A stretch of 64,000 nucleotides of DNA from NCBI GenBank assembly GCA_973895155.1, contig OZ316896.1, positions 6,624,166 to 6,688,165 of the forward strand, given 5' to 3'. Origin of the DNA: Marsupella aquatica. Lineage: Eukaryota; Plantae; Marchantiophyta. Below are positions 1,177-46,789 of this stretch, piece by piece. The position numbers were made by a program, and so were the translations under genes. A model generated the notes under the pieces. The model saw only the letters and a program-made list of their open reading frames with translations. It did not search any database and was not told where the DNA came from. The number at the start of each line of letters is the position of its first letter. The stretch's first letter is position 1.

Positions 1177-1704
1177 CGGGGTACACAACATCATCAGTTA
1201 TCTCAAAAATTTTAGAATCTCAGCTGAGGAGTTGAGATGGGGCCTTCGAACTTCTGCTCAACTCAGCTGGGCAGCCGAGGTTGATTCAATCTTGGCTGAC
1301 CTCGCCAAGATGGGCGTACGGACCGAAAAAAATCCAAAAAAAAAACACCAAAAAATTTCCAAATTTTTTTTTTCCCCATCTCAGCTGGCCTTGCCAAGAT
1401 GGGACGTACGGACCGAAAAAAATGTGGAAAAAAAAACCCAAAAATTTGAAAAAAAAATTTTGAAAAAAATTCAATTTTTTTTCCCATCTCGGCTGGGCTC
1501 GCTGAGATAGGTGTCCGTACGGTATGGACGCCTCATGGCGAAAAAAAATTTCCTTCAAATTTTCAAGAAAAATTCAAGAATTTTTTTCCTTCATTTTTTT
1601 CCTTTTTCTCATCGCAACTTGGCGGCCTCTCTGAGATGAGGTGACAGCTGATATCAGGTACACTAATGAAAGTGACTGATAACTGATGAGATTACTTATC
1701 TCCC
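1177..1704. mobile_element. Putative non-autonomous DNA transposon (MITE-like)
   Basis: Inverted repeat TCATCAGTTATC (1191-1202) / GATAACTGATGA (1678-1689). Internal repeats gccaagatggg(a)cgtacggaccgaaaaaaat occur twice, with A/T tracts. TCTATC is directly repeated on both flanks. The ORFs here are low-complexity artefacts. Confidence 0.45.
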
Positions 1705-4185
1705 TCTATCTGGTAGAGAATGTTTAGCCCATTTGGTTGAGTAGAACAAAAATGATTTTTTTTAGAGATCCATGTTGATTTTGGCTTGAACTTAGTTGAC
1801 CCACATTACTGGCCCATATTTAATAATTACTCTTTCCCAGTTTTTGAGTGACAACTAGCATAGATTTGACATGCGTTATACTTCTCACACACATTACTAT
1901 TCTTGCATGGGCTTCCATTCTTGCACACATGGCAATTTTTACACAAGAGACTTTATTGTGCATCAACCCACGTTGCATAACTCTCATCATTGATCAACAA
2001 ACATCAATAGTTAAGACTAGCTTGTTATCTTATTTTATTACCCAAAGTACTATCCAAGTTTTTGTTTAAATTTGGCATCAAAGAATGTGTATCATTCTTG
2101 CAAATGAACACAACATTTTCTTCACAGTTGCCACACGAGTGTCTTGAATGGTCACACCAGTGATATGACACGTTGCACAATCTCCACCTTTGATAAGTAA
2201 AATCCAACGGATAAGAATGAATGGATGACATGGAATTTCTCTGAATTTATAAATTTGCAAGAGTCTCTAACTGGACCCATAAAGACTGCACACTCACAGC
2301 CTAGTCATCCAGACATTCACCATGCCAGTTTGTTCAAGCTCGAAGGTCCTCCACCATTCCAAACAAATCAGCCGAGCCTCACCCTTCCTCGAGTTTTCTG
2401 TTCTCCATAGTAGTTTGTTCGTCTCTAGCATGCCCAAGCTCTTTGACTTCCACCGTTCCCCTCAATTCACCTGAGAACCTCCTGATGCCACCATCGGCCT
2501 CCGCTCTCTGATCTCCCTTGCCTCACACAAAAATACTCAAACACACAACACAATGCCCACGCAATGAAAAACAACTTCCCCCAACACACGACTCCACGCG
2601 CGCATGATCAATTCAATAATGCCCCTTGTGGACCGTGATTGTTCAAAGCTCTCCATGTGTCGCTCCCACAAAATTTCACCCTAAACCCCATTCAAATTTG
2701 GTTAACTCCTACTTTCATTTATTCTTCTTTTCTCTTTAGCTCAAAACTCAATCTTCACTTAAACCCTTTTCCCCTCTACCAGAGTTAAGCCAATTCTCCA
2801 AAAGTTGTTTCAAGGCAAGTTGCCCCAAATCAGCAGAGCTCACTCCACTCATAAGCTTATTTTCCCGATGACACCATTGTTCCTCCACCCCCCTCTGGTT
2901 GTTCCTTTGCCCCCTTTTCTCCCCGCTTCTCTCCGGTTGAAGTCTTTGGACCCCCTTGATTGCCCCCTGACCTTCCCTCCTGTCCAGTTGGTGTCCTTCC
3001 TGGAGGCCCTCTTTGTTGTGCCCTGGTGGATCCTCCTGTTTTGCCCCCTTCTGTCAATTCCTCATGAGCCCTTTTGCCATGCCTTTCCACTACCCTGTGA
3101 GCTACCCTCAAATACTGACCCTCCAGAGGCTGCCCCTTTCTTTGGCTTCATCCACCCTATCCCAACCCCTCCTGTTGTTTCCCCTTTTAGGATCGCCATG
3201 TCTCTTCTTCCCCCTTGTCTTAGAAACATCTTTTGGTCCCCCTCCCTCTAGATGGACACCCCTTGCACTTCCCCCTCCTTATCCCTCCATCATCCCCCAG
3301 TCTTTTGACTCAACCACCCTCTCCCTTCTATTTCTGTAGATGAAGTGCCTCAATTGGTTGCGATTGGGCCAATGTGGTGCTCAAGCCTGGGCCCTTTGGA
3401 CTCATTGTCTGTCAAGGGTCCAGGCAGCTCCATCCAAGCCCTGTCGATTCTCATGCATTAAGCATTTGCTCTCACTGCATGAACTAAACTTCATTGCACT
3501 TAGGCCCAAGAGGAGTTTTTGCTCAAACCCTCAAAACAAACAATCCTTCAGGGGGTCACAATCCTTCAGGGGGTCTGGGGGGGGTCCACCCTGAGCCCGG
3601 CCTTTGTTGTGACCCAACTAGCTCATAACACCAGTTCAAGTCCCTTATGCACAACCCTAGCTCGAGATTGCCTTTGCTAGAGTAAGGCTTCCTTGCTCTC
3701 AAGTCTTTCCCATACTTAATGCCTTCGAGATGGCCATCCTAGTGCTTGGACCATAGACAAACTCGACGTTGGAGTAAGCAATGCTGGAGCTAAGTGGTGG
3801 AGTAATCAAGTTTTGAAACGTTTGGTCTCTTGCTTCATTGTGGATCTCCACCCCATTTTCTTTGACTACATCATGGACGTTGAGGCTAGATTTTTCTCCT
3901 TTCAGGTTCAGCTTTGTTATGCCCCAATCTCTACTGCCTGAGGCTGTTCAGGCCATTGTTCCAAATTTTGTGGAGGTGATTTTAGACAGTCCAAATTGTG
4001 TTAGTAGATGATTTCTCACCGCATGCATAGACAAATCCTTTCTAGCTTGCTCATTGATGCAGCTTTGGACTTGGTTTGGGTTTGTCTACATTCCAGTGCG
4101 GAAGTTGGTTCTGGAGCTTGGCTTTTGGCCAGTCCTTGGTGGGCACCCTTTTGTTTGTGCTCCTTCATCTTTACCACGTCTTTGA

Positions 4186-4275
4186 GATCAGATCAGATCA
4201 GATCAGATCAGATCAGATCAGATCAGATCAGATCAGATCAAATCAAATCAAATCAAATCAAATCAAATCAAATCA
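4186..4275. repeat. Compound pentanucleotide microsatellite (GATCA)11(AATCA)7, probably an expanded LINE 3' tail
   Basis: Read directly. It abuts a LINE 3' end whose paralogue at 29601 has only (ATCAA)3. Confidence 0.9.
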
Positions 4276-4915
4276 AATAAAAAATTCAATCAAATTCTAA
4301 GCTTCAAAACAACCCAAAGAGTGAAGGGAGCTGTCAGTGGCAAGATGTGAGCTCATGTGAGGACCTTTGCTTCCTCATCGTGTGACCAAACTAAAGGGCC
4401 TAGAGAGTCTCTAAAACTTCAATAGCCTTATCTCTCTTGCTACCAATCGCCATGATATATAGTGCCCAAGCTGCCTTGGAGGTAGTGTAAACAAAGCATA
4501 TAAATTTTGAGCTAATATATGTGTACTACTCTCACCTCATGGTACACTCTATAAGCTATGAACACATGGTATTAATTCTCAATACTAAGACTATCACATA
4601 GTTTACAAGTCCTCTGCTGTCTCTCAATACCACTCCACCTCTTCTACTGCCAAATGATGAGAACTCAGTCTATCTCTAGCTATGATTTTTTCTTAATTGC
4701 AAAGAGATAGGAGCACTAAGTACCCTTGCTCTTCATACAACTGCATTGGAGTCACATCCCTCAAGTAGTGTTGTAGCCTAGGACTAGGATCTGCCCACAA
4801 CTTCTTGATGGCTTGAGCTTGCAATGCCTTTCTTAGTGCCTTTGGAGGCCCTTACCGTTTATCATTTAGTAATCCCCATGCTTCTGCCCACCTAATCACA
4901 TCAGCATATCAACAG
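4276..4915 (-). mobile_element. Degenerate 3' fragment of a non-L1 LINE (RTE/L2-like)
   Basis: The minus strand gives RLSSHHLAVE..., then a degenerate CxxC...E..H motif typical of the RT C-terminal domain of these LINEs. The 3' UTR (gtgaggacct...cttcctcat...accaaac.aaagg.cctagagagtctctaaaa) is shared with 29601-29765. Confidence 0.6.
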
Positions 4916-5459
4916 GAACCTGTACCATGAATGTTTTGAAGTTTTGAGCCCACATTTTAGCGAAAGGTAACACTTGATCGGGTTCCTTACAACAACTAAA
5001 TGCAGTCACTTCTCCACCAAATATACATAAACCATCGAGTGGGTCCAACCATACACTGGCTGCTGATACGAAACACACTCGAAATGTTACTTATCTTAAA
5101 AATATCATCGGAATTGGAACTGTATTCTATAATATCGCTAGGCGCTAACAAAAAACAAACCAAGATTTCTAGCCCATTGCAATAAACTTATTGCAAAAAT
5201 ACCTACAAGTGTAAGAGTTTAGATGAGAAGAATTCCATTCCCAGAATGTTAAGAAACGGAAATTTTGGTTTCAAACACAAGTACTTTAAAGAATCCATCC
5301 GGCCCATGAAATGAAAGAGATTCACTCAGAACGGGACAAACTTATGCTAGCGTCGGGCGCTAGCCATATATATTAACCAAATGTGATCGTTGAAAAGAAA
5401 TGAAACATTGCAATGCGACAAATGAGGTTGGAGCCGTTCAACGTTACTAAATCTCTAGT

Positions 5460-8400
5460 CTATAAGTTTAGAGAATTCTGCCTAGCTAGAATGAGCCTCA
5501 CCTCACCTACAGTCAAAATTGGCTGACTAGCCAAAGTTGAATCCACGACATCTAGTTTGAGGACGTTGGTATAAACCCAATATAGATGCTTGCAAGGCAT
5601 GAAAGGCCGTCCATGAGAATGGCGACGATAGAAGTCCTCACAAGAACAGCAGGGGAAAATACAAATCTGCACCCAGTAAGTGTTTGTCGTACGAAGTTTC
5701 TCTTGGGTCTGGATCTGAAATTGTTTGCCCCAAGAGTTTCCGATTGAAACATCAAACTGTTGAATAAGTGTCATCAGCTCGTTGTTTGCAGATTCAATTC
5801 TTTTGTTGTGTCCTTGTGAAAGATTTGAACGTGGGACTGTATTTTTACCATTCCTACTCTGAAGGCAGATATTTGGCTCCAGGAGATTGATTTTCTCAGG
5901 GAAAACATTCACATTGATTCGCAAGTCAAATGGAGATGGAGGAGCCTGACGTCCGGCCTCTGGATTGATCGCAATCCCTTGCTGAGATAGGAATTGGACC
6001 TCAGCTTCCGAAAGATTTGTGCCCTTCAAAACGGGCAGGGTATGAGGAAACGGGGGAAGATTCACCACATTACGACGGGGCCGACTCTTATGGCATGCAT
6101 TATTGGGACAGAACCAAATCATCTCAGGATGTGGTTCTCCCCTGAACATGCGGTGTCCTTTGACAACAATGCCAACTACACCATCCGTTGACGGGTAACC
6201 AACCTTTTTCAGACAATTTCGACACTCATCTCGCTCCGATTTACCACCAAGAGATCCATTACATTGAGGCCCTGCACCATGTTTCGTCACTCTTTGCAGG
6301 TGCCAAGCACCTGGTCGCACATCTGTCTCCAACACAGATGAGTCATGGACAACCCTTTGGAGGTTCGGAGGTGCACTTTGCGGTGCTACAGAAGACCTTG
6401 TCACCCTCCTCCACGGTGGAGTACTCCACTGACAGCCTTCTTCGATTTCGCTTTCCGATAGATCCACAACGCCAATGTTATCGTGAACAGGTCCCTCTAC
6501 ATTCAGGGAGAATTCGATCTTGTTTAAGTTTTTCCTCTTCATGCCTCGAGTATTGGGTGATGTTACAAGAATAGTGTCATGCCGATGGGAGTCTTGTGCC
6601 GAGATGTTCCCAGAGGCCTGACCTTTCCTCTTCACAGACTTTGTTGTAACATCCCCATTGAGTGGACCACTCCTTTCCAGGTCGAATTCAGCCGCACCGG
6701 AAAGAAGCATATTGGAAGCATCTTGGAAAAGTTTTGAAGAACCTGCCTGGTCCGCCGAACGGAATGCCAATTCCCAAATTGTAGGTCCGGTTCCTCGGTG
6801 AAGACCTCTCTTATACGCCGTATATGCTGCAACTTGTGAGACACCCCTGTTTTGGTCCATCTCACATGCTTCGAATAGGCCAGCCTTTTTCTTAGTTTGC
6901 CAAGCCTTCATTATGGAATGCGCCGCCTCTGAAGTAGTACAGTTAGGAATCATAGCGCTTTCCTCCACGCTTTTGTTCTGCATCCACCATAGGAGCAGAG
7001 TTTAGGAAATATGACTTAGCCACATGTACATAAAATCAATGACAGCGCCTGGCGCTAGCAACATTCAAACTATATTTTTGCAAAATTTAAGAAACAAGTG
7101 GTCCATTAATACTAGCACCGGGCGCTAGTATCAAAAACAAGATAATGATGAACGAAACCTACGAGACCACACTAACTGAAAATAATGGTAGCGCCAAGCG
7201 CTAGTATGAGTTTGAGTGGTTACTGGATGTTGAAACTCACCAAACAAATGAAATTTCCCCATTGACGCCATCGGACCACCCACCACGCCAACCAACCTTG
7301 GAGCATTCGAAGCTTCCCTGGAACACAATTCCTAGATCTCCACCATACATCGATATCCCTTGAAATTCTGTACGCTCCAAGAAATGTGGACGCGTTCCTT
7401 AAAGAGTCCCACATCTTCCGATGCTCATCTCGTTTTTCTTCCAATACACCTTCAATCGAGTGATGATGAAACGATTGATAGAAGTGAAACGCATCCGATC
7501 GCTCCTTTTCTGGGTTAGGATGTCCTCCGAAAAATACATTCTGAACAGCATTCCACCCAGCTTGGGCATTGTCAGCCATGAATCCATGGATTACAACATT
7601 ATCCAACCCATTTTCATGGCAAACCTCAATCATCAATTTCCAGGCTTTCTCTAGAGACTCTGAATCTTCTGCTTTCAACTCACATGTGAAAATTGTGCAA
7701 AGAGCACGATAATTGTGATCATAAACATGTGCACTAAAATTTATCCAATCTTTTGTCATCCTCCTCATCACATCAAAACTGACCCATGCCCCTTCCAATG
7801 GACCTCCAGGCTGCATTTGGCGCAACAAATCAACTCCAGATCCGTGCCCTTTTACAGTCATTTTGAAAATATGTGGCCTATCCTCTTTACAGCCTTGACC
7901 TGGGAGCATGTAACATTGTAGAAAGGGAAAGATTATGCATTTCTGCATTTCAACAAGAAACTCCAACTCACCTTTGCCTTTTTGGTCTTGCCGAACGCTT
8001 CGAAAAAGAGATGCAAACTTTTGAGGGGTCGAAACTACCATTAACGACTCCCAAATTTCTCTTTCCTCCAATTCACCAATGTCATTGTTGGACACACAAA
8101 GAGCCTTCCTTAAAGATCCAGTTATAGCGTTCTTCAGACCCGATGGTGTGGCACACGGCGTAGCTTCATGTTGTTTCTTTATGAAGTTGTGAGCAATCTT
8201 TTCAGCACCACGAGAAAAAACTTTTCGACTGGGATGAGCATGAGTTCCGACATGCACAGCAAGACAGGACATATGCTTACAAGTATCCGCATCTAGAAGT
8301 AGTTGAGGGTACATATAAAAAAGCATTGCAGGACATGCTTCAGTACAAAAGGGTAATCGTTGGCAATAGTGACAAACTACGCCACCCTCGTCAATCATCT

Positions 8401-9259
8401 TTCCTACGGTATGTGGCCCCGCGAGTTTGGGTGTCCCATCCCAAGCTTTACAATTTCTTCGTTTCTTCCGCAAAAGATAATCACACTTCTGATTCTGACA
8501 TTCTAGTGCTCCTGTACACGTCACTTTACCAAATTCCCAGAACTTTTTCGGTTGTACATTCGCAGAGGTTGGAAATATTCGTGTCCAGAAGTAGCAGTCT
8601 TTCGGCCGATCCATGTCACGGAGTCTTGAACCTTTTGAAAGAAGACCTTCTGCGGGAGGCAATTCAAATACAACGTTTCCATTGTATTTGCTTGGGAGGC
8701 AATTCACCTGCTCATGCCTGAAATCACATGTTTGGATGAATCGCGATAGTTCACTATGGCCAGTTGATTTGAGAATAGCATCCATCACGCTTTGATGATA
8801 GACAATACCTCCCGCAACACCCCCCACAATGTGTGTCTCCGCAACACCCCCTGCAACGTGTGTCTCGGAAGGAAACTGACCTTCCATCTTGACCGAAGTT
8901 CCCGGATTGGGCAATTTTTGCGAATGAATGGCAACATCCTCCTCATCACTATCGGAAAGGTGAATGACGGGAACCGGATGAATTTCATTCGTAACGGAAT
9001 TATCTCAAAGATTGATATAGTATCTCTTCCCAACGTTCAGTTGCCAAAATCTGACTCCATCGTCGATATCAAACAATGCGTCACCAGCCTCATCTCCAGA
9101 AGCATCAACAGGTTTGATGGAAAGAATGTCATTGATGCCAATGTCAAATCTTCCACAAAGATAGTTCTCACTAACCTGTTTGTACGTATCGGAAGAACCT
9201 AAAGGAATGCGTACAATCTCTCCAGTTCCAGAACGCAGAAGCACAACTGAATTAGACAT
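5460..9259 (-). pseudogene. MULE-type DDE transposase with N-terminal Cys/His (GCM/WRKY-like) region and C-terminal SWIM zinc finger; join(9259..7241,6977..5460), one premature stop
   Basis: Catalytic motifs VSFDVM, FMADNAQA, DAFH (C/DxxH) and TTSEAAH. SWIM motif CSCEDF..CKH. A phase-0 GT-AG intron (7240-6978) joins the two long ORFs. ORF 9005..9286 is in frame with 7220..8914 across a single TGA at 9007-9005. Confidence 0.85.
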
Positions 9260-10159
9260 TGCGGAACAATAATCCCGAATTGACAAACAGAGAAAATGAG
9301 AGAATAGGAGAACATAACCCGACTTAAGTTAAGTGAATTTGTAACAAACTCCAGAAGATTATCGTTTGTGAATGACAAAACTGGTACTAGTCGTAAAATG
9401 TAGAAACATAAATATCGTTTGTCGTTTTGCCAACATCACTACGTACTGGTAACATCAATAATATAGTTTGAGAAACACGGTCAGATATTTACTAGCGCCC
9501 GACGCTACCATAAATATGTCACGGAATTAAAACCCAAAACCAAACTTCATATGCTAGCGCCAGGTGCTATCATTAATCCACATCCAATTAATGGTGCAAA
9601 ACTCTATTAATTTTATTGGAATAACATCAATGTCAAAATACATTGAGTTTGTTTTATATAATTGTTGTTTGTAGGAAATATACACGTATAAAATATAGTT
9701 AGCGCCGGGCGCTGACATAATTTCATGGCTAACATCAGTGTTAATGATGTTATTCTGGTGGTTTTTGAATGCTAGCGCCTGGCGCTAGTATCGAAAGGAA
9801 TGACTTGTATTATCCCAACGGTTATATCTAACGGTAAAGTGCATGAACGTACTCATTGTTTCACGCTTTTTGCAGTTGACTTCCTTAACAATAGCCTACG
9901 GATCATCACTCCTGCCTTACCCCACTTAAAAAGAGGCGTTACATGATATACTCATTCTAAACAGTATCGGCCACTTGTCCTTGTCATGATTGGTGAGTGA
10001 CATCCTTTCCTTCCGCATCGATCTACCTCCCATGATGTCAACCGCCCAAGTTTTAAAGGTTTCCTGGTTGTTCTTTTTGTACGGTAATCTGTTCAGAGCG
10101 TGAGAATAGACACTGGCTCTGTGTTGTACAAGCACCTTTGCAAACTTTGGGGCTCCACG

Positions 10160-13100
10160 ATGCAACCTTCAAGCGCTCCAAGCTCTCCAAGAGGGTATAC
10201 CACGGTTCCGGAGGGAGATCAGGGTCATTGCGAGAGTACACAATCTTCATTCTCTGGGGCATTCTATTCGCGTCATGTTACAAGATCAAGCGGAGCGATT
10301 CCTTCGTCGAACACAACACTCCCGAGCCAGAAGCCAAGAAGGGGCAGAATGGAGACTGATGGCATGACCGATTACGCTTTGGGAGAGGGCAACGAGGTAG
10401 GACTTGGAATGAATGAAGTCATCTCCAAACACATTATGTCGTTTGGGAAAGATTTCCGGGGTAATGAGAAGGAACCTCCACGGATTCCGCTTTGTCGCCT
10501 GGTCCACATGGAGGTTGTTCGGACGTTACAGAAGGAGAGTGCATCAATTGAGAAATTGAAAGACTCATTCCGAAGTAGTGGATACAATCCCAGGATAGGA
10601 ATGCGGTTTTTTGTACAACCGACCGATTCGGATGGTGTGGAGAAAATCTGCACTGAAGAGATCAGGGGGAGTTGGGATCCAATTTGGGTTGCTGAGAACG
10701 AGAAGTTTGAGCTGGAGTGCGAGGCAGATCCTGCCTTTATGATCTTGAAAGACAAAATGTTCTCAGTGTTCGACGGGAATCATCGACTTTACTCGTGGAC
10801 GATGGTCACTAAGGAAAATCTTGACAACGTCAAGTATCATCCCAGAGTTCTCTGCACAATTTTCAAGGGTGACAAAGCTTCACAAATTCAGATTGAGGCG
10901 GCTATGCACACTGTGAACCAGTACGTTTTTTTGCCCTAGCTTGTAATTAACGATTTCCGCAATACTTGTTGATTACATAAATATAGTGTTTATGGAGTGT
11001 TTATAAAATAATACAGTGTTTATAGGATAATTGAGTGTTTAAGTTAAGCTAGCGCCCGACGCTAATAATTGAAAACCTGACCTATTGCAGGTTAGGGCAG
11101 GCCGTTGTTGAACCGTCGTGGATCCTTGACGCAGACAGAATCCGAAGGATTCTTTCTCACGATCTAGAGCACTACAAGTCTATCATTGACAGCGCCAATT
11201 ATGCAAAGTTTGAGTATATCAAACAGAAGACTCGAAAACATTCTTGGTACACAAGAAAAATGCCTCTAGAAGCTCTAGTCTGTATTTTATGCGAAAACAA
11301 AATCAAAGCTTACACTAACCAGTTCAAGATGGACATGGCACTGGCAGCAAGTCAAGGCAATCCTTGGTCGGCTGATGACATCACAAAGCGGCAATCGCTC
11401 ATGTTGAAAGAATCTACTAAAGATTGGTCCACAAAAACGTCCAAAATCACTCCTCTTCTTAGTCCTGAGTTTGAAGATTTTCTAGGTACCTGTGCAGAGA
11501 TGTATGTTTTGACAGAGAAAAACAAGCGAGAGAAAAAACCAGATTCGGTTGTTTGCACTATGGACCGTGCCAGACTCTTCACTGCAGTTTCGGCGCTTGA
11601 TCCAAAATTGAGGTGTACATTGCTCGTTGCTCACTGTACTCCAGAGTTGAGAAAACAATTCTTCCACCCTTCGAGTGTGAACGATGATCCAGTGAAGCAA
11701 TGGTGCCACACATGGCAAACATGGAATACCGTCGAGGGAATTGCAATTGGGATGCTACACTCGGCAATTTCCGCAACGATTGAAATGCTACCGGTTGATA
11801 GGCTTGCCCAGTCAGGGTGTGACTCGGTAGAAAATCTGATTGAAGTAATTTCAAGTGAATTCCGAAGGTATGGGGATCTTGTGAAGGCAAAGTTCTTCAA
11901 CACCTTGTGGCCATCAAAATACCCTGATAAAGAGGTATATACCGAGAAAAATCAGAAGAGGGCCAAGAGGTATTTGTATCGTTTCTACATTTGGATGGAA
12001 ATTCATTCCCCGGATGCTCTTTGGTCGTATCCAGCCGCATTTCACAAGTGGATTATTGTAAAGGAGGGAGATCTTGTTTGTGACTTATACTCGATGTATC
12101 CTGCCGAGGGTAAACTACCCCCAAGGGAAATGTCCGATTGGGAAAGAATTCACTGCCCATGGTACCTTGACACAGACAAGTGGGATTCACCCTTTGATGA
12201 AGTGGAGAAGGATTGGTTTCTGAAACTTGCAAAGTCGTAGATCCTTCCCAACATTGTTTCTGAGATGAGGCAAGGTCTCCTTAGCGACATCGATAAATCT
12301 TCTACGGAGTTACAGACAATCTGTGAGACAGTAGTTGTCCATGTAGATAGGAGCCGCAAGCCACGAGGGAAAGTTAAAATAGACACTACAGTGCCAAGTG
12401 CCTCCACGCGATCCGGAAAGAAACGTAAGTTTTCAATCTTTTATCAAATGTTTGCTAGCGCCTGGCGCTGCCATTCTTGTGATTCAATCTTCATCAGTGT
12501 TTGCTTGAAGGCCCTAATCCCACATTCTTTGCAATATGTCCATAGGTCAAAAGAAGTCAGATGTAGATGGCACAGATGATACGAAGGTTACTCCAGAAGC
12601 TTCAGAAGCAAATACTGGCGCTTTGCCAGATCCACTTACACCAGTTAATTCTGGGAAATCGATTGTCCCAGTCGATGCGACGAGTACAAAAAAGAAAAGC
12701 AGAAGGACTCGAGATGCTGGACAATCAGAACGGGATTCTCAAGCTGCCACTGGGCTCCAACGTGATGTTGGGGATTTTAAAGCCAAGTTGTCTCGTCATT
12801 GTTTCGTTGAGACCAGTGTCAGTGAACTTGTGGACAGTGTGTTTAATAAGGAGGAGAAGCCAGAATGGGTAAATGATGCCGAAAAGTGGGGGAAAGACCT
12901 GATCAAATCTGGATGCCGGCTGAAAGGAGTGGTGAGGGGTGGGAAGCAAAGACCTTTTGGTGTTGACGCTGGTTTTATTTACTTGCCAACTGGACTAAAA
13001 CCGACTTTGCTTGACAGAAAGGTCCCTAAATGGAACGTCCCCGACTGTACCCTAGCCCGATCCTTTTTCCGGGCAATGGATCCTTTTTTGTCGGATGATA

Positions 13101-14025
13101 GAATTATTGCGATACTCCATACGGGGGAGTATGATCAAATTTCGCAGGTCATCTCCGCTTGTCAAGAGTCCAAGAAATTCCAGTGTCATGGAGATTCCCC
13201 ATGACGACATTGGGAACTAATTACGTGTCCAGGAGATATTGTTCTGGATTGGGCTGTAGGTTCGGGGAGTACATTTGTTGCAGGTGATAATTGTGGTCGT
13301 TTTGTAATTGGACTCGAGAATAGGAAGGAGTTTGTGGAAACCGCTTCTAAGGTATTTCTGGATCTTCTTACTCCAAAAGAGTCTGAGCCCAAAGCCCCTC
13401 CAAAGTCTTCAATTTCAAAACAAAAGAGAGACAAACTGAAGTCTGTTTTAAATTTTGATTCTGAAGATGAGGATGAGACAAAAGAGGGGGAAGAAGAGGA
13501 GGATCCTAACATTCCCAAAGTGTCCCTTACCGGAGAAGATCCAGGATCTAATGGAGGGAGTGACAGCGGAGACTCTTCTGAGTAAGAAGCTTCCGAGTAA
13601 GCTCTTAAGCAAACCCTTTTTGGGGGTTTTTTAGTAGATTACCTTATTCTCTCTTAGATTTCTCGTTGTTTTTTTCGTTTTTTAAAATATTCTTGGTGTT
13701 GACATAAACCCCTAAACTTCTCGTCCTCAGGTCAGACTGGAATCTTCGCCGGCATTTCAAACTCAGAAGGAAAGTAGCTAGGCGATATATTAAAACTCCC
13801 GAGAAACCATTTGTACTACCTTCCTATGCTGAGAATATTGCTAGACGAGCTGATAGTGTGCGGATCCTCCATTGGGAGCATAAAGGTTTGAGATTAAGGA
13901 GAGGGTCTGATAGAAAATTTATTCGTAGTCGATATGTTGATGATATGGCCGAGAACGAATTTTTAGACATGGAGGCAGAATCCACCGACAGGTCCGAGTC
14001 AAGTGAATCAGAATTCTCAGATTGA
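10160..14025 (+). pseudogene. ParB/Srx-like domain + beta-class N4C/N6A DNA methyltransferase-like fusion; join(10160..10920,11091..12424,12546..13581,13731..14025), two in-frame stops
   Basis: ParB-like: IPLCRLVHMEVVR...IEKLKDSFRSSGYNP...FSVFDGNHRLYSW. MTase motif X-I-II-like: ELITCPGDIVLDWAVGSGSTFVAGDNCGRFVIGLE (~13214-13320, missed by the ORF track). A degenerate motif IV-like VDAGFIYLPTG lies upstream. All three GT-AG introns preserve frame. Stops are TAG at 12238 and TGA at 13202. The start codon is uncertain. Confidence 0.75.
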
Positions 14026-14699
14026 TTTCCCTCGGACGGGTATTTTGGGATTTATATACACTGAAGTTATACTAGCGCCGGGCGCTACTGTTATGTAACC
14101 TGTAAAAATCGTTTATTCAAATGTATTCGATACATTGGATACTTTTTTGGTGTATCTTTATTCTATTATGTTCTCTATATTCGAATGTTTTTATGGTAGC
14201 GCCTGGTGCTACCATAATTTAATGTCCATGATCATATACCCGCATATTTTTCAATTTGGTTTTGTCCATTTTCAGGGTAGGTTTACTTCCTAAGACTGGA
14301 CATTCCGATTGGTCGAAAACAATTGACCTGCAACTCCGTTTATTTTGTGTCTATTTCTCAATTGAATTATGCTAGCGCCTGGCGCTAGCAAAACATATTT
14401 CGGAAACATTGTCCGTTAAGTGTTTTCCACATGTCAGCGACAACTATTTTGTTTGTTCCTTCTGTTATTAACGTAAACATTTTAATACTCTAATATTAGC
14501 GTCGGGCGCTACTATAACTGTATGACGGTCAAGGCTATCTTACAATGATTCTCCCGTACGCTCTGGATGACGTCATTGGAAGTTTCAAGGTAATATTTTG
14601 TCCCGTTCTAAGTTCGTTCGGCCTGTCGCGACTCGCATGTGAGCTGATACCGGATTTTTCTCATACAAACGGTCACTTCACGTCACAACGGGACTTTGC

Positions 14700-15521
14700 A
14701 TGCAAGAAACATTTCGGGATTCCAATAATGGTTTTGGTCGACCATTTTTGAATGGAGACGATGGTAAACATCGCAACTATCATGTGAGATGGGAGTGACC
14801 GTTCCATGTTGAACGGGTAGTTTGGGGACTTTGAGGGTGCAACGTCCAACCCCTCCCTCATTTCGGTGGGCGTATCCAGGTCGAATGGATTTGCTTATAA
14901 TACTTGGGAGATTAAATCCCGACTGCCTTGTTTCGCTACTGCTTTATTGGTTTCTGTTTCCACTTTCGATAATCTTCGAGCTCTTTCGCTGACCGGGGTC
15001 GTATTGACAACTATATCTTTGAATCTGCCTAGAGGTGTCTTACCATGAATTACCCGAGGAGAATCTCCGTGGCCTCTTTTCAGAGACACACAACAATCAT
15101 TTCAGAGGAGGGCTCGGTTCCAGAAACTGAGCAGCCTGAATGGTCGGAGACAACTGCTTTCTACAACCATTTTAGTCTCCCCCAAGACGAAGCCATTAGT
15201 CCTGGTGACAATCTGATCCCATGGCTGAGGGATTCTCCGCCTAGGAGATTTGCAGAGCGGTTTACGATTCACTGACCACCTCCTCCTTACAGTCCAACTC
15301 GGGAGGATGAGATGAGGAAACAGGAAGAACTTGGCCGTGTTGATTTCCAGAACACGACCATTCCTGGCGTGTTTCCCCAAACCGGTGATGAGCGAGTTCC
15401 GTCGATGGCGTTCGTGAGGAACCGTGAGCACGGTTTCGTTCCAGATAGAGCCCGATCTAATGCTGGAGTGAACGATAAATGTGGCTCATCGACCAATGAG
15501 CGAACTAGCGCCGGGCGCTAG
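14700..15521 (+). pseudogene. Possible decayed third ORF of the MULE element, unknown function
   Basis: ATG 14700 and ORFs 15045..15275 and 15312..15521 share one frame, interrupted by several stops. No recognisable motif. Confidence 0.25.
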
Positions 15522-15990
15522 TGTTGGTCGATAAGACTATGGTGCCCATTGCGCTCAAGTTTTTCCAAATGTGATGAAGACTTCGTCGGGACTCGACCGG
15601 AATTTAGAAATCTTGTCGTTAGAGTAGCCATTTTGGTTATCGATTGTGTGGAGTTCGGTGAAGTGCCTACCACTAGTTTACTGTTTGGCCATTTTAAGCG
15701 AGAGGCATCGGAGCCGCGTTTCTTTTTGAAACTTTCATACCTTTCGTTTACGGTGTGGTTATGCGGATCACTTTTATCTTTTGTAAGCGCCTGGCGCTAC
15801 CATCTTACTTAAAAAAATTGTATCGCAAGACTTTGTGGCTTTGGGGTGGCGTTCAATTATGCGAATTGGTTGGAGTCTGTTCTTTTGGATGTATAACCCT
15901 AAATGTTGGTCCGATGGTCCCTGTGGTTTCGTCATATTTATCACGTCGGCCTCCGTCTGACTGAGCGGTATAACTAGCGCCCGACGCTAG

Positions 15991-16341
15991 TATCTGCACA
16001 AGTCCATAGCCAAAGTCAACCCGTGCCGATACGAGACCGAGCAAGCTTACAAGAGAGCCATTCGCTTAGCCGGCCGTAATCACTATAACGACAACTTTGA
16101 CCTCCCATTTCAGAGTGAGCTTTGCCAAGTCGACAAAATCAGCGAGTACTTCTTTGTCGACGAGAAGTACGTTGGGTTCCAGGAAGCGCTTCTTTGGCTT
16201 CCAGACAAGGTTTACCATCTCCCGGGCACGATAGACTTGCAGGCGCATCACTACAACCATATCCCCGCCCAGGTTCAAGCCTCCATAGAGTCAGTTTGGC
16301 CCTGCCCGAACAAGCAAAACTCCTATCTTAACATCACTTGA
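15991..16341 (+). pseudogene. 5'-truncated open frame (YLHKSIAKVNPCRYETEQAYK...SYLNIT*), probably an LTR-retrotransposon accessory ORF
   Basis: About 116 stop-free codons with no start codon. It begins directly after the last palindrome and ends just before ORF 16367. Confidence 0.4.
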
Positions 16342-16366
16342 CTTCCCCAGGGACTTCCTGAATCTA

Positions 16367-18522
16367 ATGGCGCCTCCCCCAGCTGCCACTGGCGCCCACC
16401 CATCCGTGTCCGCGCCAACACCGCCCCAGCCTCAGCCAAGCCGATCTCCACCACCGATTGCACCACCTCTCCGAGTGCGATCCGTGGTAAATGCGGTGAA
16501 TATTAGCTTTGAAGACAAGGAGGCTCACCCTCCTCTGAACGGACGGCCGCGGGGTATGACTCAGCAGGCGCCAAGCAACCCGGTGCCACTCCAGCCAGCC
16601 CGAGGGGATAACACGGTGACTCTAGCGGCCCCGGCACCAATACTCACGGCAGTACCACTACCGCCGCCCGACCGGGAGGATGGGGAGATGTCCCCCTCTT
16701 CTAGTCACCCCGGGAATCAGTCTCGAGGTAGAAAGAGAAAGGAACCCGTAGCTATATCTGGGTTGCCTTTAGCCATGGTTGCAGTGGCCAAGCTGACCAT
16801 GCATCGCATGGGGGATAACGTTCACAAGAACATCCTCCACCCCAAGCATGCATGCTACCTAAAGACCCAAGGGTTTGAGCACCTCGCCTCTCTCCCTTGG
16901 AATGGAAGCAGGTACTACGGGCAGGATATGACGGAGTTCATTCAGAACTTTGACGAGGCCCGTCAACAAACCAGCGCACACGGGAGAGTGATGTGTCTCA
17001 ATGAGGCACGTTTGAAGATGATTTTTGGCCTACTCGAGGGGATAAACCGGGTAGAGTCTCGGGCTCCTAGGGGCAAGGGAGCTAAATACCAGTCCTCTAG
17101 CTTCCCGACCGAGGGAGCAGTGGACAACGGATTCTTGATGAGGACGTGCGTCATCCCGGGGGTAGCAGAACGCCTGGAGTTCCAGCGGTATGCCCTTCAC
17201 ATGATGGAACCACGAGGTGAAATATCCGCCGCCCAGGTCATACAAGTAGAGAACTTTTGGCCTAGGAGGTGGGCGTCCTTCTTCATCAAGAAGTTCCACG
17301 AGGAGATGGAGCGAAGAAGGAAGACCTTATACCTTGGCGGAAAGGCGTACTTTGCGAGCCACATCAAGATCATCATCGAGTGGTACGTCCGTTTTGACCG
17401 CCGAAGCCTTCCCTGTAGCAACGAGACGGAATTGACTCCGTCAAAGTGGGTGTTCCTGGCTTAGGAGAGGCGACCGCAGCCCAAGGCCCAAAACCTGGTT
17501 GTCGCAAGACCTGCTTCCCCGACCCCGCCACCAACGGCTACCGCCCGGCCAAGCGTACCCATGGACGCAGTTATCGCGACCTTGGAAGCAATCAACCAGG
17601 TCAACGCAATCAAAGCCGGGCCGACTGAGGCCAGACCCGAACCCGATACTACGGTGGCCAAGGAAATCCTGCCACCCCCACGGCTGTGCAGGAGAACCGA
17701 CCAGTGGAACCAGCCCCTTTGACAGACTTACCTCAAGGGCTGGATGTTTCCACTCCTACTCCCGCGCGGGCTGGGGTCTGCCTGTGCCCAAATCTAGATG
17801 GGCATAGTCTGGACCACCCAGAACTCTTTGCGCCGGGCACATTTTTGAATGGGTTGTTGGGAGATTTCTCTCAAAAAATCGCACGGGATACCGGGGAATA
17901 CATGGCACAAAAGGTGGCCTACTTCTTCAACCAGGAGTTGGTTGCAGCTATAAAGGCAGGACGTGCGCAAGCTGAGATGGCGCAGAGAATAGAGCGGTAC
18001 CGGGTTGAGTTTGTCTACCTGAAGGACGAAGTGGCAGCCCTAGAGATTGAACTCCAGCAACTGCAACCTCAGGTAACGGCCACGGAGGATCAGGTTGTCA
18101 AGGTCAGGGCCCGGGCAGCCTTAGCAGAGCAGGCCAGGCTCGGAAAGGACTTCGAGATCGCATGGCTCCGAACCAAGATTGACGGTTTGAAGGGACAAGC
18201 CGTCATTTGGCAGAAAGATCTAGAGGAAGTTGACTCTTGGTCTCAGCGGAACGCAGCCGAGATAGACACCCTGAAGACGGAGGTGGCGTGGCTTCAAGGA
18301 GAAGCCACGAAGCAGGCCCAATTGGTGGACAAGCTGATGAGCGACGTCCAGCAATTGGAGGAGACATGCCAGGAGGCCGCAAAGGAGACGGACACAATGA
18401 AGCGTGAGAACAAATCTCTGCTGGACCAGGTCCAGCTACTCAAGCAGGATGCCGACAGGCTCAAGAGGCAACAGGATAGTCGCTCCTACTCAGGCGGCTC
18501 TGGCAATCGTGCCAGGCATTAG
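16367..18522 (+). pseudogene. Accessory ORF of a Ty3/gypsy-type element: Pro-rich N-terminus, plant-mobile/Athila-ORF-like domain, coiled-coil C-terminus
   Basis: MTEFIQNFDEARQQTSAHGRVMCLNEARLKMIFGL resembles the EFYxN...G..i....i...lgl pattern of such ORFs. The frame continues past TAG 17462, then shifts near 17686 into a heptad-rich ORF. It lies upstream of a PPT and LTR. Confidence 0.6.
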
Positions 18523-19437
18523 CGGCGGAGTAGGATTAAAATAGAGTTAGGAGTAGCTAAATCGGGCTATAGGAACAAGCGCCTGCCCTAGTTAAAGCGG
18601 TGCTGCCATACTGTCCAGCCTACGTAGATTAGAATCTTCTAATAAGAAAAGTCATTTTCTGGCCTGACAACCAGCTTAGTTAGGATCTTAGTTAGTGAAT
18701 ATTTGGGCTTGAGGCCACTCCGGTCCTTGGCCCTTAGTATTTAGTGTACCCCTCGATAGAGGCAGGGGGTTTTTAGTCTCAAAGTTGGACATCCGTAGTA
18801 TGTGCAGGGAGTCCCAACCTCTGTGAGTGAAAGAGTACCAAGGGGAGGGGGTAGGACTAAGCTTTCTGGGCGAGTGCGGAGCCGGGCTCCGTTGTAGTGT
18901 ACACCCTCGGCCTTGGACCTGTTCATTCAAGAGCTTTCAGGTCAACTAAGTGTACGTGTATGTCCCCTATATAGTAAAATCCTTTCCCATTATTTCTTTT
19001 GTGTAAATCAAGATTGTATGCTTGTGCGTGTGCATATGTGTGAATCTCGTGTATGGATGCCAACGCTTGGCCAAACTCACTACCCGAGCCGTGCACGGGG
19101 TGCAACTTGCGGGTAAGTGGTTGCGAGCACGAGTTGAATGACCATATCATCAAATCTGGATTGAAGGCGGACAACACAAAGGCTTAGAAGCCCGTCAGCC
19201 GGGGTCGATCCCGCTATCAACTAAGGTACGTTTCGGCGGCGGAACACAAACCATACCTAGGAGGTGTCCGTAAGTAACAGTAGACGCACTTAGCGGTAGT
19301 TTACGTGAGTTAGGTGCATTCCGTGCTTTCCTCCCTGCCCAAACCCTCATATTTACAAAGGATGTGCCTGTCTAAGCCGAAGCCCGGGTTAAGGCCTAGG
19401 TTGACAACGTGACACATGGCGGAAGGAGAAGGGCCGT

Positions 19438-20077
19438 TGTAGGATGTGGACAGGGCAAGTGGCACTTTGTTGGCTTATATAGCTTAGATAGTATTAGGGG
19501 TCCAGATCCATCAGGTTTTTGGCTTAGTCAGGTTGAAATTTATTTTAGATTAATAAACAAGAATATCACGGTGGAAGGTCGTGATTGAGTGGTTAGGATT
19601 TCCGCGGTTCTTTGAGGTTACGCTGCAAGGATAAAAACCTGGGCAGCGTGGCTGGGAGGGGCTTTTTCTTAGTCAAGGCTTTAGTGTAAATCTGTATTGT
19701 TGTGAACACAGGAAGCTCTCGGCTAAATCTAGACCGCGGGGTATCAGTAAACCACAAGTTCCCATGGATTTCTGTGCAATTGTTTGAATTGAGTTGGCCT
19801 TGTTGCCTAGTTTGCAGACTCTTGCCAACCAAGGAGTTGTGTTGTGATATCCGCTGCTTGATCGATTTAAGTCAGATAAGGTGAAACTGTTGAGCAAAGT
19901 ACGATGACATTGTCTTGATTGGAGACTGCCAAATCAAACTCTGAGAGAAAAGTGAGGTATTGAGAGTGTTAGTCGGTTAAAGTGTGGGTTGAGTCAGTCT
20001 GAAAAAGACCTTCAGCCGGCTTAAGAAATTAAGCCGTAGAGATACATTCCGGGGGCAGAATACAAATATACCCGACA
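19438..20077 (+). mobile_element. Putative 3' LTR of the gypsy-type element
   Basis: Purine tract GGAAGGAGAAGGG (19421-19433) precedes TGTAGGAT. The end ...ACCCGACA gives TG...CA termini with imperfect inverted ends. No second copy is present to confirm. Confidence 0.55.
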
Positions 20078-21056
20078 AAGTCAAGGAGAAATTAGGTGTC
20101 TCTGCAATGCACGATTCACAAGCCTAGTGACAGAATCGGTCCAACAAGTGTGGATCAAAGGATAGGCCACGTTTCCAAGCAGGATAGTTGCCAAACTGCT
20201 AGAAGCCGGACATAAATCAGTGGTTTATGATCGGTTGCTGGTAGTTCTTGGGGTTAGAGGTGCAGGGAAACGTACCATAGTTCCTGATCAGAGGTGGGCT
20301 GATCTGGTCTTTCCTTGGGCAGGTGTTTGTGCCTATGGCGGCGATGGGGTGGTTGCCAATCCTACTGGTTCGTGGGAGCCATGTTGTGGTTGTTGCCCAT
20401 GTCCCTGGGCATGCTGCAGCCCGGCTCATGGAGAAGGCCAATGCAACCCATTTTCCTGAGGATCTTTTCTACCCTTTTTCTCTCAAGATCTTTGGGCCCT
20501 CCCACCCTATCTTTGACCAATTTCTACGGGCTTGTGGAATCTTTTGTTTAGAACAGAGGCCGTGCCCCCAGTTTTAGTCCTTGTGGCCTTCTTTAGGCTT
20601 CTGGTATCCATTGCTCTTCAATGTGCCCAGGCTTTCACCATTCTTTGTATGATTGAGACTGTAGGTTACTTTCATTTATTCTAGACAAATCCTTCTATGT
20701 GACCCTCCTATGCGGTTCACTCCGAGCTCTACCATGCTTTTCAGCTAACTAGGGTTTTTACCCTTTCCGTTGTAGGCTTTGTTTTCTCTTGGGTTAGTTC
20801 AGGGTTCTTGGACTTGTGGGGTCTCTCTAGCCTGCTTGCAGTCTCCCTCTCATGCTTCCCCCCTTTTATTGGGTCTTTTGCATGTCCCTATCTCCCGGTT
20901 TGGCCTCTTGTTCTCTGGCATTGTGATATACATTTCCCTCCCGTCCTTCAGGCAAACTTTTGTGCCTTTTGAGGTTCTCCTCCTGTAAAGTAATTAAGCT
21001 GCCCTTCTTCCAAAATGGAAAATTTGTGGGGATCACCAAAACAATAATTAAAACTA

Positions 21057-21882
21057 CTGTCTTCCCCCGAACACAGCGCCCAGGCCGCTGTGTTTGAATA
21101 TGGTCAAAACAGGGACTTTAGGCAAAAAAGACATTTTCACTCAAACACAGCGCCATATTAACACATCGCCCGGGCGCTGTGTTCAAAATTGATTTTGTGT
21201 TTGAAAATGTGCACAAGTGACTATAGGAGAAAGGTAATTGGGTTGCAACTACAATACGTTACTTAAAATCGTCCGACACATCCGCACTTTCAACTTACAA
21301 AATCCATAGTCCTTTGAGAAATGTAAGCTAATTTCAAACTCCTTCATTCTCAAAGAAGTGTGTTGTTTCCCAATTGTTAAGCAGCAAACCGGAAGTATTG
21401 ATATATACTTCTGCTGTGTGAACTTTCAACGGACTTTCACATCAACCTCTGATTGACGCCACGTTGTCTTGTAAAAAAAACCCATAGTGCCTATGTGCAT
21501 AATTAGGTCTGATGACTCACTTTCTCTATTTCCAATTTTCCATTGCCCTCAAGATCAAGGCACTCTAATAGAAACAAAGCAGTCTCGCGAACATTGCAAG
21601 CTGCATGAAGAAAGATTGAATAATAGAAACAAGCAAATTGGCCACATTAAACCAAACAACTGTGAAAAGTGGACGAATATGTTATACTAAGTGATTACCT
21701 TTCAAGCAGATTACCTTAAATTTGAACACAACGCCACATTTTGAACACAACACCACAAGTCCAAAAAATGAAAACATTGACTTCAAACTCAAACACAACG
21801 CCTTGGGCACTATATTCAAATAGAGCACCCCTTGGCTCACTATTGGAATATAGTGCCCGGGCCTTGTGTTGGGGGAAGAGGG
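21057..21882. mobile_element. Tc1/mariner(pogo)-type MITE with TA target duplication
   Basis: Imperfect TIRs CTGTCTTCCCCCGAACACAGCGCCCAGG / CCCGGGCCTTGTGTTGGGGGAAGAGGG, flanked by TA at 21055-56 and 21883-84. Subterminal AACACA(G/A)CGCC repeats. Confidence 0.75.
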
Positions 21883-35614: not shown

Positions 35615-35670
35615 CTCAACTCGGAGGCAGAGATGGAGGCCGCTGCTTCGGTGATTCAAATTTAGGCTAG

Positions 35671-46720: not shown

Positions 46721-46789
46721 GGGGGCCCACACTGTGTAGTGTTCCGCTGGACTACTAAGTGGCATGGATTGATGCTTGCAACTTAATTA

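Follow-up and report, generated by a model that had tools for sequence, protein, structure and literature searches.

The 64-kb window (the whole stretch of DNA analysed) contains a copy of a Mutator-type DNA transposon, belonging to a multicopy family, in which a reverse-strand transposase gene and a divergently oriented accessory gene are accompanied by 18 copies of a palindromic site (Table 1). The first-pass annotation had placed this element at 5133..15991; the element is real, but its true start lies about 220 bp further left, where contig comparison sets the boundary at 4911-4913: the unique X1 contig stops at 4940, the match to X5 contig 17 begins at 4911, and X3 contig 12 matches 4548-4912 and then diverges. 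The right end of the element, needed to read the terminal inverted repeats and 8-10-bp target duplication typical of Mutator elements, was not found within the window, and the 64 kb contain no inverted copy of its left end.

Table 1. Features of the transposon copy (window coordinates).
Feature	Position	Strand	Remarks
Mutator-type transposon copy	4913..15994		left boundary 4911-4913; right end lost ~15994
Palindromes 1-2	5130-5150, 5345-5365		downstream of transposase
Transposase exon 2	5460..6977	-	catalytic Glu (TTSEAAH); C-terminal SWIM-like CxC...CxH finger
Palindromes 3-5	7040, 7110, 7186 (7040..7206)		transposase intron
Transposase exon 1	7241..9259	-	N-terminal Cys/His region; first two catalytic Asp; D-x-x-H; in-frame TGA 9005-9007
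Divergent spacer	9260..10159		4 palindromes; X5 contig 20 copy spans 9272-10203
Palindromes 6-9	9490, 9552, 9697, 9770 (9490..9790)		spacer
Accessory exon 1 (start uncertain)	10160..10920	+	low-complexity N-terminus; ParB/Srx-like domain; DGNHR (GxxR) 10772-10786
Palindrome 10	11047..11067		accessory gene intron 1
Accessory exon 2	11091..12424	+	conserved middle region, no known family; TAG 12238-12240; 27% identity to Riccia P0001, E 4e-24
Palindrome 11	12453..12473		accessory gene intron 2
Accessory exon 3	12546..13581	+	beta-class amino-MTase-like; YLPT at motif IV 12980-12991; motif I DWAVGSG 13247-13267
Accessory exon 4	13731..14025	+	LPSYAEN motif as in Riccia P0069; acidic tail; weak, pairwise E 0.003
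Palindromes 12-18	14070, 14194, 14370, 14494, 15503, 15782, 15972 (14070..15992)		downstream of accessory gene

The transposase gene starts with an ATG at 9259 and is interrupted by an intron at 7240-6978, in agreement with the spliced reverse-strand MULE gene originally proposed. Over its two exons it is 32% and 25% identical to protein P0004, with which its FD, MADN, DAFH and TTSE motifs align; these we take to be the MULE DDE motifs, including the C/D-x-x-H signature. The top Atlas match (0.95) is to a cluster with 61% PF10551, and the best named matches belong to the same family or clan in 10 of 10 cases; Pfam gave no MULE match for the transposase itself, and P0004 has a weak match to IS256 (E 0.009). 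The predicted protein has the IS256-related DDE arrangement with C/D-x-x-H of Mutator/MULE transposases. As for its description as a DDE/SWIM enzyme, the DDE part stands through the alignment with P0004, but the SWIM part is less secure: the CxC...CxH pattern occurs in both proteins, and the Pfam SWIM profile matches P0004 weakly (E 0.17) and the window's own transposase not at all.

The accessory gene was correctly recognized as a spliced forward-strand fusion of a ParB/Srx-like and an amino-methyltransferase (MTase)-like part, with GT-AG junctions in frame, and its model is now extended by a fourth exon; the protein encoded here amounts to about 1140 aa plus a lost segment. Pfam N6_N4_Mtase matches the MTase-like part with an E of 1e-7, at positions 176-220, covering the C-terminal, motif-I portion only. 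The ParB label is likely, and is the weakest part of the assignment, being founded on Atlas features (similarity of 0.94-0.95 to a ParB/Sulfiredoxin-named cluster and to a cluster with 11% ParB_N), a weak match to PHROG 1033 (ParB-like; E 0.07) and one motif, the GxxR P-motif that reads DGNHR in both the window's protein and Riccia P0001. Pfam and PDB sequence searches with this domain returned no match, and its AlphaFold model has a pLDDT of 32. There is no HTH family match in accessory exon 2, and no ParA-like ORF was noticed.

The ATG-to-ATG distance (9259-10160) corresponds to the spacer of about 900 bp first reported, and this region, common to both genes, likely acts as a bidirectional promoter. 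Among the contigs listed none covers both reading frames, as would be expected if the two genes were unrelated insertions that became adjacent by chance; this is nonetheless highly improbable, considering that the same motif runs throughout both genes, that X5 contig 20, another copy with 99 differences in 930 bp, crosses the spacer, that the X5 contigs tiling the two genes do not differ much in depth (73-109), and that the stretch is found in three organisms. The initial description of a single element comprising transposase, fusion gene and palindromes is thereby upheld, and the element is multicopy. The copy in the window is broken, as had been suspected from its stops, which are present in transposase exon 1, accessory exon 2 and at 13202-13204; the last is not a point mutation but lies in a deletion/inversion junction, where accessory exon 3 has lost about 86 aa of the methylase domain and retains a short inverted remnant at ~13193-13213. 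The right end of the element is also lost.

A search with AGCGCCNGGCGCT, allowing up to 2 mismatches, finds 18 copies in the 64 kb, all within 5134-15988 and none in the window outside the element, compared to a mean of 0.09 and a maximum of 1 when 5101-16000 was put through 200 approximate dinucleotide shuffles. The consensus reads TRNYAGCG-N5-CGCTRNYA, an interrupted palindrome of 21 bp whose 5-bp core is free. None of the 18 copies falls within the five exons modelled at the outset (6737 of 11082 bp; chance ~5e-8), the later-found exon 4 or the first 215 bp of the element, and their flanks show no relation to one another, with 29% identity on average and 48% for the best pair. The 18-copy palindrome said to tie the two genes together is thus confined to the non-coding DNA of the element. 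Its suggested likeness to parS, which is 16 bp long, is loose: the site is interrupted, extends over 21 bp and has a free core.

Similar sites are found in L001, a single 1241-bp contig with an MTase exon that shares 33% identity with P0005. Its intron equivalent to accessory intron 2 contains two AGCG-TTTTT-CGCT sites, which score 17.7 and 17.3 against a half-site matrix derived from the window only (next best, -3.6); in a control, 0/500 shuffles reached these scores at any gap of 3-7. L001 and the window are alike in half-sites and 5-bp spacing and differ in the core; because L001 is one short contig with no transposase within, its site is tied to neither protein. A symmetric dimer would be expected to select just such a pattern, in which half-sites and spacing are fixed and the core is free. 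It is improbable that the palindromes are instead RNA or cruciform hairpins, or host transcription-factor sites, kept for expression or splicing: a slight excess in complementarity of the arms of a site (47/72 vs 41.2 expected, P 0.04) and the good folding of several sites (z -3.9 to -8.0) are in line with such a role, but the half-site consensus is kept at many sites despite mismatched arms, positions -12 to -9 show no excess pairing, and L001 conserves sequence and exact spacing, beyond what pairing calls for. Moreover, all 16 exact AGCG-N5-CGCT matches in the window lie within the element, so that the host DNA on either side makes no use of the site.

The model of the Calypogeia homolog P0010 (pLDDT 78) matches beta-class MTases (CcrM, E 6e-11), with a Z of 17.7 and an rmsd of 3.7 over 199 aligned, and in the alignment motif IV precedes motif I, which is the permuted Rossmann order of this class. 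The SAM-binding motif I is recognizable in the window as DWAVGSG, with the Phe of D-x-F-x-G-x-G substituted, and is followed by IGLE with the acidic residue expected after the next strand. The canonical motif IV, D/N/S-P-P-Y/F/W, is present in 0/29 aligned family members covering this region: its first position is occupied by A/Y/F/D/S/C, mostly hydrophobic, its fourth is never Y/F/W, and where a phage sequence has DPPF the aligned members have DPPT, DLPS and, in the window, YLPT. Replacement of the S and Y of the catalytic motif abolished the activity of N4CMT (PMC8885841), and DIRS1 retrotransposon MTase domains are called likely inactive in the available part of PMC4738411. Judging from its sequence, the methylase domain is probably not a methyl writer, with fold and SAM motif persisting, and the "load-and-modify" activity once envisaged is unsupported, since not one of the 29 members retains motif IV in its catalytic form. 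In four Riccia homologs the Asp is kept (DPPT, DLPS twice and DMPS) and the P-x-W-N that follows motif IV is conserved, so that unusual catalysis is possible, with the Trp standing in for the aromatic residue. Fold and SAM motif are intact, 4mC writers occur in Marchantia and rotifers, and the N4 methylases M.BglI, M.SfiI and M.MwoI recognise interrupted palindromes; even so, given the uniform loss of the canonical motif and the YLPT of the window's own clade, it is quite improbable that the fusion methylates DNA (4mC/6mA) from a non-canonical active site and so places a protective mark on the palindromes or their surroundings.

With the sites masked, the CpG observed/expected ratio of the element's non-coding DNA is 0.98 (95% CI 0.82-1.15), declining from 1.08 in the 100 bp next to a site to ~0.7 beyond 250 bp. 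The ratio is 0.25-0.36 in the flanks, 0.23-0.59 in two LINEs and a Copia, 0.70-0.73 in the adjacent high-copy repeat, 0.70 in the element exons and 0.92 in a host exon; CpG is undepleted near the sites, yet coding state and age are confounding factors here. Together with the half-sites kept in a distant relative, it lends support to the VANC-like purpose initially suggested.

Our preferred reading, held tentatively and with not quite even confidence, is that the accessory protein, with its likely ParB/Srx-type and its motif-less methylase-like parts, binds the 18 palindromes as a dimer and shields the element from host methylation, without writing a mark. It would read AGCG-N5-CGCT, probably through the methylase-like fold, to which the GxxR-bearing domain may add nucleotide-dependent loading, oligomerising or spreading; occupancy of the sites would spare CpGs and the shared promoter from methylation, in the way VANC acts on VANDAL. 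CTP as the nucleotide is not assured, since ParB-fold specificity is not predictable from sequence according to the available text of bioRxiv 10.1101/2025.10.10.680097. A bolder version, which we regard as doubtful, is that liverwort-lineage Mutators have a bacterial-derived, nucleotide-gated ParB clamp, loaded by a dead methylase at their own AGCG-N5-CGCT operators, that spreads over kilobases and bars host CG methylation in a parS-like manner, having evolved independently of VANC.

The palindromes could also be internal sites bound by the transposase, for self-activation or synapsis, with the accessory gene acting otherwise. In favour are the N-terminal Cys/His-rich region and SWIM-like finger of the transposase, the position of 5/18 sites within its gene or immediately downstream, and the example of AtMu1, where the transposase by itself, with no accessory gene, binds the element that encodes it and brings about hypomethylation (available text of bioRxiv 10.64898/2026.08.24.746577). 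AtMu1 binding as described there, however, peaks at the TIRs, whereas the sites here extend over 11 kb, with none in the first 215 bp, and algal ParB genes, in the accounts available, change transposase superfamily yet retain adjacent inverted repeats. Such repeats beside ParB accessory genes, in the company of unrelated transposases, suggest that it is the accessory protein that reads the site; binding by the transposase is unlikely, while deserving serious consideration.

Two 2025 papers propose, in the parts available, that algal transposons bind and modify themselves by means of ParB-type accessory genes, with the target site left undefined there; in the present element a conserved operator with sharp limits is joined by a candidate for its reader, making this idea directly testable, and the disarmed look of the methylase shifts it towards protection from binding rather than from writing. 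If true, land-plant Mutator elements would have, in addition to VANC, a second self-recognition system of independent construction, and a ParB-type nucleotide switch might be at work on eukaryotic chromatin.

In comparison with known systems, the accessory protein resembles beta-class amino-MTases (CcrM, M1.HpyAVI, M.PvuII, rotifer N4CMT and Marchantia DN4MT1) in fold, IV-before-I order and SAM motif, but their catalytic D/S-P-P-Y is replaced. It shares the GxxR P-motif (GNHR) with bacterial ParB, and differs from ParB/parS systems in that neither HTH nor ParA partner was found and the site geometry is not that of 16-bp parS. Fusions of ParB to N6/N4 methylases are common in phages and bacteria, as stated in the accessible portion of bioRxiv 10.1101/2025.10.10.680097.

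What is new here is the occurrence of the family in liverworts. Similar gene pairs have, in the texts available, already been described in algal transposons, contrary to the original impression of an undescribed architecture. In Ectocarpus, Sola1-1_Ec32 has a ParB-like + N4/N6 MTase fusion of ~1100 aa on the strand opposite to the transposase, for which its authors propose the same self-binding and self-modification; the available text of PMC12477816 contains no target site or catalytic-motif analysis, and the comparison, by described architecture, is between a Sola1 in a brown alga and a Mutator in a land plant. The giant red-algal Plavaka DNA transposons have a ParB-like gene by inverted repeats and an N6-methylase gene (PAG2/PAG3), with PAG homologs in Chondrus Mutator elements (available text of bioRxiv 10.1101/2025.02.11.637652); unlike here, these are separate genes, one joining ParB to a 2OG oxygenase and the other the methylase to SET, and the repeats form tandem arrays by PAG3, whereas the palindromes are dispersed and also lie in introns. 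Algal ParB accessory genes occur, in these accounts, with Plavaka, Sola, Mutator and Zisupton transposases; none of the 30 proteins looked up bears an algal name.

Pfam scans of the element's proteins show no similarity to VANC. The parallel with Arabidopsis VANDAL/VANC is one of organization: as reported in the available text of PMC5735166, these too are Mutator-type elements with an accessory gene and a short motif enriched in intron, intergenic and terminal non-coding DNA, and VANC21 occupies the same compartments as the 18 sites here. VANC motifs are 8-9-bp non-palindromic, family-specific words multiplied by tandem repeats, as described there, whereas the liverwort site, an interrupted palindrome of 21 bp, has unrelated flanks and conserved half-sites.

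Searching the window for AGCGCCNGGCGCT with up to two mismatches returns 18 copies, all between 5134 and 15988 and within the element, against an expectation of 0.09 in shuffles of the region; the palindrome cluster claimed by the first-pass annotation is thus real. None of the 18 sites falls in a modelled exon (chance ~5e-8). When the 36 half-sites are counted column by column, the full site grows to 21 bp, which reads T-R-N-Y-A-G-C-G, five bases and the mirror image, and the flanks of the window sites are not tandem copies. Nine sites have a central C/G, and five of them (5349, 9494, 11051, 14498 and 15976) share a CCCGA/TCGGG core at a constant position, which is a site subtype rather than scattered decay. 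A single exact AGCG-N5-CGCT within exon 2 (11387-11399), with another core and without the outer half-site bases, is probably a chance occurrence.

Features of the window, with the distribution of the palindromic sites
Feature	Position	Strand	Palindromes	Remarks
Downstream of transposase			2	
Transposase gene	ATG 9259 to 5460	-		one TGA at 9005-9007
Transposase intron	7240-6978	-	3	the only intron; GT-AG
Spacer			4	
Accessory gene, exon 1	10160-10920	+		four exons, ~1140 codons; start uncertain
Accessory gene, intron 1		+	1	
Accessory gene, exon 2	11091-12424	+		
Accessory gene, intron 2		+	1	
Accessory gene, exon 3	12546-13581	+		
Accessory gene, exon 4	13731-14025	+		
Downstream of accessory gene			7	
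Repeat abutting truncated right end of element	15995-20264			high depth
Decayed LINE	33437-39588			ordinary context
Decayed LINE	44862-50735			ordinary context
Plant F-box/LRR host gene	55300-58550			ordinary context
Copia-type RT fragment	60641-62719			ordinary context

The same site recurs in a distant relative. A metagenome scan for related loci gave one, L001, a 1241-bp contig whose methylase-like exon carries the motif CYLPTG and is 33% identical to the homologous protein P0005. Upstream of its splice acceptor, which corresponds in position (read from the sequence) and phase to intron 2 of the window gene, lie two AGCG-TTTTT-CGCT sites; a half-site matrix built from the window only scores them 17.7 and 17.3, the next best being -3.6, and 0 of 500 shuffles equal these scores with any gap of 3-7 allowed. 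Because L001 keeps AGCG-N5-CGCT around a TTTTT core, half-sites and spacing are conserved and the core is free. This conservation, seen at one locus, would be compatible with more than one binder. Among viral contigs there was one marginal match (L002, E 8e-4), with no related loci for the ParB-like and transposase queries, and the scan of prokaryotic genomes returned none.

The transposase is collinear with P0004, a homologous protein of 1050 aa, and contains FD, MADN, DAFH and TTSE motifs and a terminal CxC...CxH. A Pfam scan of it gave no MULE match; its top Atlas match (0.95) is a cluster in which 61% of members are MULE, and the similarity of P0004 to IS256 is weak. It is accepted as Mutator-type, and the spliced minus-strand MULE gene of the first reading is borne out by the Atlas match, the GT-AG intron and the weak IS256 similarity of P0004.

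Exon 1 of the divergent accessory gene shares 42% identity with Riccia sorocarpa R1sor_010531, which also spans the first half of exon 2. Its DGNHR is a GxxR motif, and its Atlas features resemble ParB/Sulfiredoxin clusters. Since sequence searches of Pfam and PDB gave no match, the PHROG match reached only E 0.07 and the fold predicted from two sequences has a pLDDT of 32, this domain is described as likely ParB-like. Of the proposed ParB/Srx and amino-methyltransferase fusion, the methyltransferase-like fold, the GxxR motif and the Atlas resemblance stood, and a ParB match in Pfam or PDB did not materialize. The full-length fusion search gave one Riccia match with the ParB exon as query; with the methyltransferase alignment as query it gave no match of 931-2655 aa, which is weak evidence. 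Seven of 30 Atlas matches for the ParB-like domain (10352-10918) are fungal clusters with DUF3723, which 31% of members carry in the best of them. DUF3723, a family occurring in Starship elements, may be ParB-like; a literature search for it together with ParB found no paper. The last exon encodes LPSYAEN and an acidic tail, both common to Riccia P0069.

Searching with exon 3 at E 0.001 or better retrieved 80 proteins among 1.84 billion representatives; of 30 proteins looked up by organism (29 from the 80), those with a name are representatives from Calypogeia fissa (three) and Riccia sorocarpa (four), so that a bryophyte host is probable. The predicted model of a complete Calypogeia domain (P0010, pLDDT 78) matches beta-class amino-methyltransferases, with CcrM at E 6e-11, and reaches Z 17.7 with an rmsd of 3.7 over 199 residues. 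The window exon was aligned with 33 of the 80 matches, the omitted 47 being for the most part canonical enzymes of bacterial type or short fragments. As an hhalign comparison with six canonical domains found motif I and did not place motif IV, the register of the latter was taken from the phage-enzyme alignment, where DPPF of a Gordonia phage enzyme aligns with DPPT of Riccia P0020, and from the joint alignment, where it stands opposite DLPS, ALPT, FLPN and the YLPT of the window. Motif IV is covered by 29 of 34 rows (four lack it; the misaligned row P0023 was dropped), and in none is it canonical D/N/S-P-P-Y/F/W: position 1 is A in 8, Y in 7, F and D in 4 each, and S and C in 3 each, and no row has Y, F or W at position 4. 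Exchange of these two residues is reported to abolish activity of rotifer N4CMT (PMC8885841), and the Marchantia 4mC writer retains TSPPY (bioRxiv 10.1101/2021.02.12.428880). Asp is kept in four Riccia proteins, and a P-x-W-N is conserved downstream of the motif. In a tree of the 29 rows and four outgroup domains, the family stands apart from the outgroups and the four Asp-retaining rows group together; its base is unresolved and its branches are long, so that no direction of motif loss can be read.

This copy of the element is dead. A stop at 13202 lies where homologs have ~86 further residues, and the reverse strand nearby reads NVVMG (HVVMG in P0005, the closest homolog); because of both observations, the junction is interpreted as a deletion that left behind a short remnant in inverted orientation. 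With two point stops also present in the element genes, this substantiates the earlier call of inactivity. The stretch is present in six public runs (four studies, three organisms), four of which were compared over 1500-21499. Three runs agree on the left boundary (4911-4913). Unique flanking contigs of run X1 have a depth of 15-20, and the depth summed across the element is 196-1128 per bin, which is not a copy number. Eight listed contigs of run X5 (depth 73-109) together cover the transposase, the spacer, the accessory gene and 15025-15605. One of them runs across the spacer, from 13 bp ahead of the transposase ATG to within the accessory frame, and shows 99 differences in 930 bp; among the matches listed, no contig spans both reading frames. 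The element is one multicopy unit.

At ~15995 it passes into a different repeat, GC-richer and deeper, and the window holds no mirror of the left end, so that TIR and TSD are unreadable. A CAGGAAC-like word near 20280 was rejected as right terminus, since X3 contig 12 is not listed with a match there for its second part. A decayed third gene may lie in the final ~1.5 kb (14500-15990), where the element DNA is rich in CpG and holds several open frames of 70-130 codons that belong to no confirmed family; a Pfam Meth_synt_2 match at 15276-15518 (E 9e-4, below cut-off) was taken as chance, PDB and NCBIfam giving no confirmation. An Rfam scan of 4500-22500 gave no match. The abutting repeat, a probable retroelement remnant, has two long ORFs, at 16289-17464 (no Pfam match) and 17629-18522 (coiled-coil matches only). 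Similar palindromes, in which arms of the ACACAGCG type enclose a CC(C/A)GG-rich core of 6-7 bp, occur in a separate repeat of raised depth (21063-21192 and 21790-21865); this repeat may belong to a related or a non-autonomous family whose spacing differs. An AGATC/AAATC microsatellite occupies 4165-4290, and a 69% copy of the neighbouring 4276-4416 lies at 29598-29764.

Once the sites are masked, the CpG observed/expected ratio stands at 0.98 for the element's non-coding sequence and at 0.70 for its exons; with growing distance from a site it runs 1.08, 0.85, 0.67 and 0.71. Values elsewhere are 0.25-0.36 in the flanks, 0.59 and 0.49 in the two LINEs, 0.23 in Copia and 0.70-0.73 in the adjacent repeat. 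The pattern agrees with local protection from CG methylation; it could also reflect element youth or ordinary promoter hypomethylation.

We tentatively favor, at just short of an even chance, a model in which the accessory protein would dock on the palindromes in dimeric form, with its methylase-like fold as the probable contact, its GxxR domain would act as a nucleotide switch, and the bound protein would shield the element much as VANC (defined in PMC5735166) does. Various NTPs are bound by orphan ParB folds, according to bioRxiv 10.1101/2025.10.10.680097. Binding of the palindromes by the transposase instead is unlikely, even with transposase-only self-activation on record (bioRxiv 10.64898/2026.08.24.746577). 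That the palindromes are hairpins or host-factor sites is improbable: within the window, arm complementarity exceeds random pairing only slightly (47/72 versus 41.2, P 0.04), and the half-sites and spacing kept in L001 speak less for a hairpin than for duplex DNA bound by a protein dimer.

Judged from its sequence family, the accessory methylase is probably disarmed, with the four Riccia Asp and the P-x-W-N as caveats, and the active writer proposed at first finds no support, the catalytic motif being replaced in all 29 covering rows. Because motif I is kept, SAM binding may persist. An active non-canonical methylase, which those caveats would suit, is improbable, and chance adjacency of the two genes is very remote.

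The feature is real, and its gene pairing, of which the first-pass annotation knew no description, and the self-targeting hypothesis are already in print for algae: according to PMC12477816, Ectocarpus Sola1-1 carries a 1104-aa ParB and N4/N6-methyltransferase gene opposite its transposase, for which self-binding and self-modification are proposed, with green- and red-algal cases cited. Two further sources describe ParB genes adjoining inverted-repeat arrays, with homologs in Chondrus Mutator elements (bioRxiv 10.1101/2025.02.11.637652), and list ParB-linked eukaryotic methylases, the DIRS1 methylase domains being likely inactive (PMC4738411). The open-access literature searched held neither a land-plant report of such an element nor a defined site, and the catalytic loss went unremarked there. 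Three things appear to be new beside these algal systems: the element is a Mutator in a land plant, its operator is defined and conserved, and the catalytic motif is lost throughout the family. They make the self-targeting hypothesis testable.
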